Below are positions 20,436 to 21,453 of a stretch of 64,000 nucleotides of DNA, one piece after another. The notes beneath the pieces were generated by a model, which made no database searches, had not been told where the DNA came from, and saw only the letters and a program-made list of their open reading frames with translations. Source of the stretch: Escherichia phage NHEP29. A program made the position numbers and the translations under genes. Position 1 is the stretch's first letter. The number at the start of each line of letters is the position of its first letter. The stretch is taken from sequence record PQ511150.1; one strand, 5' to 3'.

Positions 20436-21068
20436 TCACAGTACGTTAGTTACAAGGGTAATGATTTCTTTGGACACATTAGGGAAGTCAATGTAAGTAT
20501 ATTTACCACCGATCTTAATCTTAACATCATTTTCAAGAGAAGTAAACAGCTTTGATTCAGTTTCTGACATGTTGTATGCAAAGATTCTAAGAGAACCATT
20601 TCGACGAATTTCGATCTGACGAATACCTAGAACTCGTTTTGCAAATCGAACTTCCAAGTTACTACGGTTTTCACCAATTTCTTTAACTTCAACTTTATCT
20701 TTAATATTTTCAAAAACAAAGTTTGCTAATTCATGCATTTCAGGAGTAACTCCACGTGCTTTTCTAGTGTTACGTTTCTGAAGAAGTTCTGGAGCATTTT
20801 CTTGGGCAAAGAGGTCTGCGGCTTTTTGGATAATATCCATTGCTTCGCCTGTTGCTATAAGTCCATCACCAGATTTTTCGACTAAACCTTTCTTAATCAA
20901 TACACCAATGTTAGAGTTAACAACCGATGCATTGTATTCCGCTTCCAGAGCTTCACGGACATTGGCAGCAGTGGTGAAGTTGTTCTTAATGATATAAACC
21001 ATTATTGCAGCAGTTTTTTCATTCAGAGCGTTTTCAGAAGCTTTGATGATGTAAGTAACTTTAGACAT
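20436..21068 (-). CDS. motA: middle-transcription activator MotA
   Basis: 210-aa ORF MSKVTYIIKASENALNEKTAAIMV…SNIGVLIKKGLVEKSGDGLI…; matches T4 MotA. Confidence 0.9.
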   Translation of the reverse strand: MSKVTYIIKASENALNEKTAAIMVYIIKNNFTTAANVREALEAEYNASVVNSNIGVLIKKGLVEKSGDGLIATGEAMDIIQKAADLFAQENAPELLQKRNTRKARGVTPEMHELANFVFENIKDKVEVKEIGENRSNLEVRFAKRVLGIRQIEIRRNGSLRIFAYNMSETESKLFTSLENDVKIKIGGKYTYIDFPNVSKEIITLVTNVL

Positions 21069-21134
21069 TTTATTTCTCCAAATTAGTATTTGTTTTGATA
21101 GGTCTATACTATCATGTTTGAAGCAAAAGTAAAC
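21062..21134. repeat. direct repeat copy 1 (~73 bp promoter-leader unit, motA)
   Basis: Near-identical to 21381-21453 (first 64 bp differ at 1 position). Confidence 0.7.
21104..21134 (-). promoter_or_regulatory. T4-type early promoter for motA
   Basis: Reverse complement GTTTAC-N17-TAGTAT, then SD GGAG and ATG. Confidence 0.5.
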
Positions 21135-21171
21135 TTTATTTTGGGCTCTTTTTCAAAAGCCCTGGTAAAAT

Positions 21172-21387
21172 TTACAAACTCATTTCTTTAATAAGGCTAA
21201 TAAGTTTTGCCTTTTTAGAACGAAGCTTTTCTAAATGATGTCCATTTGAACCGCGAACCACTAAAGAATTGATTTCAACTTCTAAGAAATTTAATTCTTC
21301 AACAAGTGCTTTACGTGGAGCATTCATACCGGGTTTAACTTTACCGAAACGAGTAGTTGTGTTTTGGGTTAATTTCATTTTAGACAT
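21172..21387 (-). CDS. hypothetical small basic protein (71 aa)
   Basis: Start set at ATG 21387 (MSKMKLTQNTTT…) behind duplicated promoter-leader; longer track ORF extends into promoter. Confidence 0.5.
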   Translation of the reverse strand: MSKMKLTQNTTTRFGKVKPGMNAPRKALVEELNFLEVEINSLVVRGSNGHHLEKLRSKKAKLISLIKEMSL

Positions 21388-21453
21388 TTTATTTCTCCAA
21401 ATTAGTATTTGTTTTGATAGGTCTATAATATCATGTTTGAAGCACATGTAAAC
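21381..21453. repeat. direct repeat copy 2 (~73 bp promoter-leader unit)
   Basis: Near-identical to 21062-21134. Confidence 0.7.
21423..21453 (-). promoter_or_regulatory. T4-type early promoter
   Basis: Reverse complement GTTTAC-N17-TATTAT; duplicate of motA promoter. Confidence 0.5.

Follow-up and report, generated by a model that had tools for sequence, protein, structure and literature searches.

Near-identical early promoter-leader units before motA and a 71-aa ORF of Escherichia phage NHEP29: probable old tandem cassettes homogenised by recombination

In the 64,000-nucleotide stretch of DNA from Escherichia phage NHEP29 that we analysed (PQ511150.1; hereafter the window), motA and a 71-aa ORF that lies upstream of it on the minus strand are each headed by a copy of nearly the same unit, which comprises an early promoter, a leader, a Shine-Dalgarno (SD) sequence and a start codon. 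We think it probable, at roughly 80%, that these units are old tandem cassettes resembling the promoter/stem-loop (PeSL) elements of T4-type phages, one belonging to the ORF and the other to motA, that they have been homogenised by recombination, and that they serve as a substrate for deletion of one repeat period. The mechanism is not new: the locus fits the published PeSL shuffling model, under which modules are exchanged among T4-type phages (Comeau et al. 2014, PMC4122927) and an orphan ORF bordered by PeSLs in one phage gives way to one chimeric PeSL in its sister phage (Arbiol et al. 2010, PMC2839356). On the minus strand the order is gene 52, SL1, U1, 71-aa ORF, SL2, U2 and motA (Table 1).

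Table 1. Features of the gene 52-motA interval of the window.
Feature	Position	Strand	Basis
Gene 52, topoisomerase II medium subunit, 441 aa	21571..22896	-	ORF list
Hydrophobic 26-aa micro-ORF, unannotated	21494..21574	-	translation LSALALGFLGAIAALVIWLYWLDKHD, then stop
SL1 hairpin	21465..21494	-	folding and terminator scan
U1, predicted early promoter and leader of the 71-aa ORF	21379..21462	-	repeat alignment, consensus
71-aa ORF, phrog_6200	21172..21387	-	ORF list, PHROGs match
SL2 hairpin	21143..21162	-	folding
U2, predicted early promoter and leader of motA	21060..21143	-	repeat alignment, consensus
motA, activator of middle transcription, 210 aa	20436..21068	-	Pfam, annotation of relatives

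The two flanking genes are readily recognised. Gene 52, or DNA topoisomerase II, is annotated at this place in ST2, mar005P1, JK42, RB69 and JS98, and the motA product matches Pfam MotA_activ (1.1e-39) and MotCF (4.6e-9) and is so annotated in related phages. Between gene 52 and SL1 lies a micro-ORF whose TTG start, with GGAGG 4 nt upstream, overlaps the gene 52 TGA and whose stop codon takes in the first base of the SL1 hairpin. The same site encodes an ATG-start peptide of 34-35 aa in JS98, ABTNLsp5 and pEK20 and carries motA.1 in T4-like RB9, and we infer that the micro-ORF occupies the position of T4 motA.1. T4 motA.1 was also considered as a homologue of the 71-aa ORF and rejected, being a different protein of 49 aa that overlaps the end of gene 52.

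U1 and U2 align over 84 nt at ~92-93% identity and lie 319 bp (one period) apart, start to start. The original prediction had located this repeat exactly: on the plus strand the 64-bp cores at 21062-21125 and 21381-21444 differ only at 21109/21428 (C/A), leaving ~64/65 positions identical, and the next mismatches fall at 21126 and 21128. The similarity runs slightly further than had been claimed, to 84 nt at ~93%, and extends past the start codons; both genes do open with ATG TCT AAA, giving the shared MSK start that had been described, and the copies end after the third codon, at 21379 (AAA) in U1 and at 21060 in U2. Within the repeat, 49 nt match exactly; the 64-kb window contains this core twice, and the expectation from 100 shuffles is zero, even when three mismatches are tolerated. 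As a yardstick, the window's 10 early promoters of strict T4 type were aligned over one 84-nt frame. Other pairs of early promoters in the window share 44% of positions on average and 65% at most, compared with ~92% for U1 and U2; over the leader alone, the other pairs average 37% and U1 and U2 reach 100%. Since the remaining early promoters are far less alike, the likeness of U1 and U2 exceeds what a shared promoter consensus provides.

The anatomy originally proposed for the unit (promoter, 5' UTR, SD and start codon) is present in both copies: GTTTAC, a 17-nt spacer, TGnTAKTAT (here TGATAKTAT), AGACCTATCAA, an A-rich leader of 31 nt, a GGAG SD and ATG-TCT-AAA. In U1, which reads GTTTAC, 17 nt, TGATATTAT, the -35 GTTTAC lies at 21453-21448, the TG-extended -10 TATTAT at 21430-21425, GGAG at 21398-21395 and ATG at 21387-21385; in U2, which reads GTTTAC, 17 nt, TGATAGTAT, the -35 GTTTAC lies at 21134-21129, the -10 TAGTAT at 21111-21106, GGAG at 21079-21076 and ATG at 21068-21066. 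Both leaders carry a patch that we call B (ATACTAATTT), and the DNA upstream of the promoters is TTTTTCTCACAAAACA before U1 and CCCAAAATAAA before U2. Each unit thereby combines the -35 element, 17-nt spacing, TGn-extended -10 and A/T-rich upstream DNA of a T4-type early promoter (Pe). The T4/RB69 consensus has GTTTAC at -36..-31 and C at -3..-1 (PMC1524935; the T4-type consensus is also described in PMC2988021), and from the spacing and this preference for C in RB69 transcription is predicted to start at ~21418 (U1) and ~21099 (U2). Measured against the T4/PST-type PeSL promoter consensus, TTTACW-N17-TAYWAT (PMC4122927), U1 fits with TTTACA-N17-TATTAT, whereas U2 of the window, TTTACT-N17-TAGTAT, has G where Y is expected; U2 of ST2, JS09 and phiEC1 has TATTAT.

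If these predictions hold, the unmodified RNA polymerase of the host, with sigma70, would begin to transcribe both genes as soon as infection starts, and the 71-aa ORF and motA would be translated from the same unstructured leader: the two leaders fold no better than shuffled sequence (z = 0.0 and +0.4), leaving GGAG unpaired 7 nt before each ATG. The SD may also be a target of RegB. In T4, motA is transcribed early and RegB cleaves the SD of its mRNA, which confines MotA synthesis to a short burst (PMC2988021, PMC3014915); RB69 has a diverged regB gene with its own GGAG SD, and the regB SDs that were tested are cleaved in vivo (PMC3014915). The strong RegB-site consensus is GGAGRAYARAA (PMC3014915), and the 3' context of GGAG (GGAGAAATAAAA; compared as GGAGAAATAAA) matches it at 5/7 downstream positions and would match fully with a 1-nt insertion. 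By analogy with T4 motA mRNA, RegB cutting the shared GGAG would probably switch both genes off together; promoter activity and RegB cleavage alike are here inferred from such resemblance.

U2 sits where the early promoter and leader of T4 motA sit, a promoter and RegB-cleaved leader reportedly described by Uzan et al. in 1990 and by Sanson and Uzan in 1993. The two loci share the GTTTAC -35, the 17-nt spacer, the extended -10, a short leader, the GGAG SD and an MSKVTY start. They differ in that the leader sequence of the window is not conserved with T4, in that its GGAG 3' context fits the strong RegB-site consensus in part only, and in that T4 has a single copy and lacks the 71-aa ORF, with the unrelated motA.1 instead.

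Both promoters are immediately preceded by stable stem-loops, and both cassettes end in SD and ATG, as PeSLs do. SL1 (GGGAGC-UUCG-GCUCCC at 21479-21494, then UUUUGUGCAUUUUU) folds at -15.5 kcal/mol (z = -3.4) and is matched by the terminator scan, and its counterpart in JS98, GGAACC-TTCG-GGTTCC, embodies two compensatory pair changes. It looks like an intrinsic terminator of gene 52 transcripts; together with U1 it forms the first promoter/stem-loop cassette, of which it is the upstream half. SL2 (GGGCUUUU-GAAA-AAGAGCCC; -12.3 kcal/mol, z = -2.6) lies directly 3' of the stop codon of the 71-aa ORF and abuts U2; here the JS98 counterpart, GAGCTCTT-GAAA-AAGAGCTC, shows a compensatory change from G-C to A-T. 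The intergenic region made up of SL2 and U2 is 81% conserved with JS98, above the level of coding DNA. Because SL2 has no U-tail, a full terminator is less likely and termination may fail; SL2 is more likely an attenuator or a 3'-end stabiliser.

The 71-aa protein matches phrog_6200, a PHROGs family of unknown function, from end to end (2.8e-40), had no match in Pfam, NCBIfam or PADLOC, and belongs to a family confined to Mosigvirus and Dhakavirus in a search of 5.8 billion proteins. It is basic, and its AlphaFold model (pLDDT 76) shows a disordered N-terminus and a generic helical hairpin; Foldseek returned nothing significant for this model against PDB and, against BFVD, its own family only, plus matches at E ~0.1 to small proteins of RB27 and P545. 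Identity to JS98 is 78/82/54% at the three codon positions, a pattern that indicates purifying selection and hence, on this comparison, a real coding gene. One might suppose that a second ATG (M4) is the native start and that MSK is an artefact of fusion; we rejected this because that Met is likewise preceded by three codons, reading MNK, in the Dhakavirus orthologues.

Short-read assembly can go wrong at short tandem repeats of ~300 bp, and one could accordingly imagine that a single promoter region was mis-assembled here and that the ORF is no real gene. Nothing specific speaks for such an artefact, and it is effectively refuted. The two-unit arrangement of 52, ORF and motA is found in ~75 independent GenBank phage records, which excludes an assembly artefact, and recurs with diverged sequence in a second genus, while the coding pattern of the ORF's substitutions and its phrog_6200 match argue that the gene is real.

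That second genus also dates the arrangement. In Dhakavirus JS98 and ABTNLsp5 the genes 52, ORF and motA follow each other as in the window, and between the window and JS98 the ORF (72.4% nt, 74.6% aa, 54% at third codon positions) is about as diverged as motA (72.8% nt, 68.6% aa, 55.5%) and gene 52 (75.6% nt). Equal divergence of ORF and flanks argues for co-inheritance rather than recent transfer; by this measure the ORF co-diverged with its neighbours and the two-unit state appears to predate the split between Mosigvirus and Dhakavirus. The original prediction supposed that one gene had acquired the expression signals of the other and proposed alignment with relatives to find the ancestral copy. 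Those alignments point to both units as ancestral, with the motA leader as the source. A simple duplication of the whole expression unit is not supported by the comparison, given that paralogous early promoters were already present in the common ancestor of the two genera and that ORF identity (72% nt) is in line with that of the flanks (73-76%). What stands is that the ORF took over the leader, SD and first three codons of motA, although not as a whole unit in one step.

The direction of this copying follows from the distribution of the start sequences. MSK together with TTGGAGAAATAAAATG is also found at motA of Klebsiella phage Marfa, to whose motA promoter and leader U2 is orthologous (90% over 94 nt); MSKVTY is the motA start in T4-like RB9, whose motA promoter/leader matches U2 in position; and the Dhakavirus 71-aa orthologue starts with MNK behind a different leader of its own. 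MSK and TTGGAGAAATAAAATG are, on this evidence, native to motA and would have passed from motA to the ORF. In JS98 itself, the stretch from GTTTAC to CCTATCAAA (41 nt) is the same in U1 and U2, and the leaders are unrelated. Both JS98 units have GCTTTAAAC and both Mosigvirus units GCTTCAAAC, a genus-specific split that has the look of concerted evolution, but the diagnostic sites are very few, and selection for strong-promoter sequence could account for part of the signal.

Within Mosigvirus, junction-specific megablast queries against GenBank phages reveal a further step. The ORF-bearing members mostly differ between units in the leader patch (~70/76 records): JS09, ECCR664 and G53, for example, combine a patch A at the ORF with patch B at motA, whereas the window, ST2, phiEC1 and PCM001 have patch B before both genes. 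The window-type ORF junction is rare (6-7 of ~76 ORF-bearing records); among matches to it, 6 records reach at least 99% identity, 1 lies at 95-99% and 73 at 90-95%. A scan of IMG/VR for the shared SD-ATG string found 7 loci. Patches A and B differ by a 2-nt indel and ~4 substitutions that switch as a block, and either may precede the ORF in phages otherwise 97-99% identical. We therefore picture homogenisation as having three stages: a promoter core common to U1 and U2, seen in both genera; in Mosigvirus, copying of the SD, ATG and first three codons of motA onto the ORF; and, in the small sub-lineage that includes the window, overwriting of patch A by motA's patch B, which would have brought the units to their present identity. 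Copying might have proceeded by gene conversion within a genome or by homologous recombination between co-infecting phages, two routes that look alike in these sequences. T4-type phages recombine very actively through their UvsX/UvsY system.

Could the leaders instead have become alike by convergence, because they face the same regulators (RNA polymerase, ribosome/S1, RegB and perhaps RegA), with no DNA copying at all? GTTTAC, TAnnAT and CTATCAA are indeed common to all early promoters, and the motA promoter/leader retains 90% identity over 94 nt with Klebsiella Marfavirus, compared with ~76% for a motA coding segment against Klebsiella phage R3_1. Yet the other early promoters of the window are only 37% identical in the leader, the change from A to B is a compound block identical to a patch 319 bp away, and the identity enters the coding region, with TCT AAA in place of AAT AAG. 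On balance we regard convergence as very unlikely and copying as the better account of the shared leader.

The same homology would be expected to make the locus unstable, a consequence that the original prediction did not draw. Unequal or intramolecular recombination between U1 and U2 would cost the phage exactly one 319-bp period, made up of the ORF, SL2 and one chimeric unit. Such states are seen: mar005P1, JK42, O157tp13, RB69, PTK and pEK20 have one unit and no 71-aa ORF, and in the first three the alignment gap equals one period. The full two-unit region is covered by 75 records, and in about as many others coverage is only 57%; judged by these alignments, about half of the Mosigvirus records appear to have lost exactly one 319-bp period, including the ORF. 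Where patch A is fused to motA (74 records), the crossover must lie within the 22-nt TTGGAGAAATAAAATGTCTAAA; in RB69, PTK and pEK20 the U1 spacer and patch B are fused to motA, and the single unit of PTK is exactly the window's U1, the very product that deletion predicts. The unit of mar005P1 is a mosaic of a U2-type spacer and patch A, and needs additional exchanges. The number of independent deletions, inferred from junction types with at least two crossover positions, is a lower bound. With 49 nt of exact match, the homogenised form in the window offers the longest unbroken homology and so should be the form most prone to deletion.

An alternative reading reverses the arrow: the single-unit state, as in RB69, would be ancestral in Mosigvirus, and the unit would have become duplicated when the ORF was inserted upstream of motA by a recent capture or tandem duplication, for example via a PeSL mini-circle from a Dhakavirus-like donor that recombined in the promoter/leader. 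The PeSL model explicitly allows such a reverse, insertional reaction (PMC2839356), the ORF is missing from about half of the Mosigvirus records, T4-group and Marfa phages carry other small genes here, which makes the interval between 52 and motA a plastic one, and in pEK20 Dhakavirus-type sequence has recombined into this very spot. Against this, divergence of the ORF between the genera equals that of the flanking core genes, third codon positions included, and on the 3' side of the ORF the junction of SL2 and U2 is 81% conserved between them. Moreover, single-unit phages show at least two junction types (A-motA and B-motA), which repeated deletion would explain and a single ancestral state would not, and pEK20 is single-unit despite belonging to the species Mosigvirus JS09. 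We consequently hold insertion to be unlikely, and deletion from an old two-unit state to be the preferred reading.

How closely does that preferred reading resemble characterised PeSLs? The window shares with them the upstream stop codon, stem-loop, A/T-rich stretch, strong sigma70-type early promoter, SD and start codon, and the presence or absence of the orphan ORF among relatives, with a single chimeric cassette where it is absent, has its exact analogue in RB49 ORF192 versus phi1. For the phi1/RB49 PeSL, mini-circles and promoter/terminator activity have been shown experimentally (PMC2839356), whereas for the window both activities, and a circle of 319 bp, are predictions. Its homology is, in contrast, tighter (92%, compared with ~44% for other early promoters of the window), spans the whole 5' UTR plus 9 nt of both coding regions and arose in steps, with motA as donor and the ORF as recipient, and the downstream gene is the conserved regulator motA, not another orphan. 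Concerted evolution and direct-repeat deletion in T-even phages offer a second parallel, in that paralogues within a genome are more alike than orthologues and loss of one period is precise, but these constitute a general mechanism, not a named element.

It is also conceivable, though we find it doubtful, that overwriting of the leader, SD and first codons was an adaptive co-regulation and no neutral by-product of recombination, with the 71-aa protein acting alongside MotA or on the early-to-middle transcription switch, or, in a related version, that the 319 bp form a mini-circle cassette that can be excised and re-inserted. Were co-regulation the reason, the 71-aa protein should need the same RegB-timed burst and translation rate as MotA.

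Taken as probable old tandem cassettes, U1 and U2 make this locus a clean, datable natural example of how small early genes are gained, homogenised and lost via promoter/terminator cassettes. The intermediates survive: a shared core in Dhakavirus, shared SD and codons in most Mosigviruses, a shared whole leader in the window, and deletions at two crossovers. Exchange of this kind can reach beyond the promoter to rewrite the N-terminus and translation signals of a gene. The 71-aa ORF merits a flag in annotation as a dispensable yet selectively maintained early gene, and its gain and loss would explain why otherwise near-identical therapeutic coliphages differ in gene content next to motA.

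The window derives from a Mosigvirus, an RB69/JS09-like T-even coliphage whose top match is phage ST2 (98.9% over 2.5 kb). Along the minus strand, gene 52 is followed by a 71-aa ORF and motA, and an early promoter with its leader precedes each of the latter two (U1 before the ORF, U2 before motA). The original prediction of a duplicated promoter-leader unit is exact in its coordinates and in the single base that distinguishes 21062-21125 from 21381-21444; in fact, the likeness extends further, to 84 nt at 93% identity with a period of 319 bp. Both proteins do begin MSK, encoded by ATG TCT AAA in either copy. 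An exact 49-nt core occurs twice in the window, where no such occurrence is expected. Shared promoter consensus does not account for this. Ten strict T4-type early promoters lie on the repeat-bearing strand of the window, and U1 and U2 are 92% identical in the 84-nt frame, versus a mean of 44% (maximum 65%) for all other early-promoter pairs; for the leader part the figures are 100% and a mean of 37%, so that the likeness is well above what a consensus would provide. That the repeat might be an artefact is excluded by the presence of the arrangement in ~75 independent genomes.

Features of the gene 52-motA region in the window
Feature	Position	Strand	Details
Gene 52, topoisomerase II medium subunit	21571-22896	minus	
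26-aa micro-ORF	21494-21574	minus	LSALALGFLGAIAALVIWLYWLDKHD
SL1, hairpin between gene 52 and U1	21479-21494	minus	GGGAGC-UUCG-GCUCCC + U-rich tail; -15.5 kcal/mol
U1, promoter and leader of 71-aa ORF	21379-21462	minus	predicted transcription start ~21418
71-aa ORF	21172-21387	minus	
SL2, hairpin between 71-aa ORF and U2			GGGCUUUU-GAAA-AAGAGCCC, without U-tail; -12.3 kcal/mol
U2, promoter and leader of motA	21060-21143	minus	predicted transcription start ~21099
motA	20436-21068	minus	Pfam MotA_activ 1.1e-39, MotCF 4.6e-9

Both units contain GTTTAC, a 17-nt spacer and a TG-extended -10 hexamer (TATTAT in U1, TAGTAT in U2), followed by AGACCTATCAAAAC, a short A-rich leader, GGAG and, 7 nt on, the start codon. 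They agree with the published form of T4/RB69 early promoters, which place GTTTAC at -36 to -31, downstream of A-rich DNA, and carry C at -3 to -1 (PMC1524935; PMC2988021), and it is from this match that the transcription starts and a 5' UTR of 31 nt are predicted. On folding, the leaders are no more structured than shuffled sequence. SL1 looks like a terminator, and the pairing of both hairpins is preserved in phage JS98 by compensatory changes. Arbiol et al. gave the name PeSL, for promoter-early stem-loop cassette, to this layout, in which a stop codon is followed by a stem-loop, an early promoter, an SD and a start (PMC2839356).

Two further observations concern such elements. The SL1 stem, GGGAGC/GCTCCC, is found in all Mosigviruses examined, while its 4-nt loop reads TTCG in the window, ST2, JK42, mar005P1, ECCR664, G53, PTK and phiEC1 and CGAA in RB69 and JS09 (just upstream of position 775 of loci L016 and L017), a reverse-complement flip. 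At the minus-strand early promoters at 24021, 24530, 45125 and 4029 of the window the spacer is partly complementary to sequence just past the -10 box (e.g. TAGGACTAT..TATAGTAGTCCTATC), which is thereby surrounded by a palindrome, recalling a subclass of PeSLs in which stem-loop and -10 overlap.

How old is the pair? The 71-aa ORF is present in 93 GenBank phage records, ~76 from Mosigvirus (95-100% amino acid identity) and 17 from Dhakavirus (72-78%), with no match beyond these genera among 5.8 billion proteins. The order 52, ORF, motA recurs in Dhakavirus JS98 and ABTNLsp5. Relative to JS98 the ORF (72.4% nt, 74.6% aa, 54% at third codon positions) has diverged as much as motA (72.8%, 68.6% and 55.5%) and gene 52 (75.6% nt), and it is therefore a real gene under purifying selection, co-inherited with its neighbours. 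That the ORF was inserted into an ancestor with one unit, although permitted by the PeSL model, fits poorly with this co-divergence and with the multiple junction types described below. The two-cassette arrangement is, on this comparison, older than the split between the genera. The JS98 cassettes are identical over 41 nt, from GTTTAC to CCTATCAAA, their leaders are unrelated, and the JS98 ORF starts ATG AAT AAG (MNK). One base is genus-specific and common to both units (GCTTTAAAC in JS98, GCTTCAAAC in Mosigvirus), a putative signature of concerted evolution that rests on few sites. The pair is no new duplication: both cassettes are old, and recombination has made them alike.

The direction of copying can be read from the leaders. 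In Mosigvirus both share their final 22 nt, TTGGAGAAATAAAATGTCTAAA; the same block and MSK occur at motA in Klebsiella phage Marfa, which lacks the ORF, and T4-group MotA begins MSKVTY. TTGGAGAAATAAAATGTCTAAA and MSK are thus native to motA, and SD, start and first three codons passed from motA to the ORF and not the opposite way. The original prediction, that the second gene had gained the expression signals of motA or vice versa, therefore stands as to function and acquisition and now has a direction, comparison with related phages having identified the shared signals as native to motA. Just upstream of the shared block, most ORF-bearing Mosigviruses (JS09, ECCR664, G53 and many others) carry patch A, AACAACCAAA, before the ORF and patch B, TACTAATT, before motA. 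Patch B in both units, as in the window, is confined to six records at ≥99% and one at 95-99% in a search with a 94-nt junction query (ST2, phiEC1 and PCM001 among them); 73 further records match at 90-95% with an alignment 2 nt longer, as patch A predicts. By these counts, homogenisation proceeded in steps, of which the window shows the last and the least common. Convergence of the leaders through regulatory selection alone cannot account for a block change that reproduces the sequence 319 bp away, or for identity that continues into the coding region. Separately, promoter, leader and first codons of motA show 90% identity across 94 nt when the window is compared with Klebsiella Marfaviruses (Marfa: L018 774-894), whereas a motA coding segment is only ~76% identical to that of another Klebsiella phage, R3_1, which suggests that the regulatory segment is under strong constraint or has been exchanged.

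The swap from MNK to MSK was probably neutral for the protein, since the motA-derived codons fall in a tail modelled as disordered (pLDDT 76; basic disordered N-terminus, helices 23-44 and 50-70). The protein has no family in Pfam, NCBIfam or PADLOC and matches only phrog_6200 (function unknown) in PHROGs, apart from a weak second match, phrog_4535; fold searches recovered nothing significant besides its own family. Weak Foldseek matches in BFVD (E ~0.1, 27-32% identity, probability ~1.0) are proteins of 68 aa in T4-like phage RB27 and of 66 aa in Klebsiella phage P545; they and phrog_4535 may represent distant homologues from other genera. Between gene 52 and SL1 lies an unannotated hydrophobic micro-ORF, whose TTG start overlaps the gene 52 TGA (GGAGG 4 nt upstream) and whose stop overlaps the hairpin's first base. 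The same site holds a membrane peptide of 34-35 aa with an ATG start in Dhakaviruses and pEK20, and motA.1 in T4-group phages.

Where the original prediction dwelt on expression signals, the main consequence of the repeat pair is a common deletion polymorphism: the two-unit region is complete in 75 GenBank records, and about as many span just 57% of it. In mar005P1, JK42 and O157 typing phage 13 there is a single cassette and no ORF, the alignment gap being one repeat period. The junctions of single-unit phages are of two classes or more. In 74 records at ≥95%, patch A is fused to motA, implying a crossover within the shared 22 nt that follow the patch. In RB69, PTK and pEK20, a U1-type spacer and patch B are joined to motA; the PTK unit is identical to window U1 from SL1 through ATGTCTAAA, with motA next, precisely the product predicted from recombination between U1 and U2 in a window-type genome. 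pEK20, single-unit though assigned to species Mosigvirus JS09, joins the end of a micro-ORF and a hairpin, both of Dhakavirus type (aaaaagtaaggaaccttcgggttcc; L021, MZ868638.1, 220-300), to a Mosigvirus promoter and leader before motA. It is an inter-genus mosaic with its breakpoint on the hairpin's 3' side, so that the hairpin, too, is an exchange point. The mar005P1 unit is likewise mosaic (U2-type spacer, -10 TAGTAT, patch A). Together, these junctions and mosaics show repeated exchange inside ~100 bp, in agreement with the PeSL model of modular shuffling, in which RB49 has an orphan ORF between two PeSLs and phi1 one chimeric PeSL, possibly via an excised mini-circle (PMC2839356). Exact tracts measure 49 nt in the window versus 36 and 22 nt in A/B phages, and the window arrangement should therefore be the most deletion-prone.

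Sequence and comparison establish the anatomy of the cassettes, the shared ancestry of the two, motA as the source and the ORF as the recipient of the copying, and the precise deletions. By analogy with T4, the ORF and motA would be immediate-early genes and gene 52 transcripts would end at SL1, while some U1 transcripts may run through SL2, which lacks a U-tract, into motA. Both mRNAs would carry a common unstructured leader, and RegB/S1 probably targets the GGAG SD in it. The T4 MotA mRNA is cut by RegB inside the SD, confining MotA synthesis to a brief burst (PMC2988021), and RegB/S1 accepts motA RNA well as a substrate (PMC1702504). The regB gene of RB69 is diverged and has a GGAG SD; those regB SDs that were tested among T4-related phages are cleaved in vivo (PMC3014915). 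Since the GGAG context, GGAGAAATAAA, matches 5/7 positions of the strong-site consensus GGAGRAYARAA, cleavage of the predicted sites is plausible only.

That PeSL-type promoter/stem-loop cassettes mediate modular shuffling is already known, and the window pair belongs there. Its addition is modest: homology here spans the leader and reaches into the coding sequences, with every evolutionary intermediate available.
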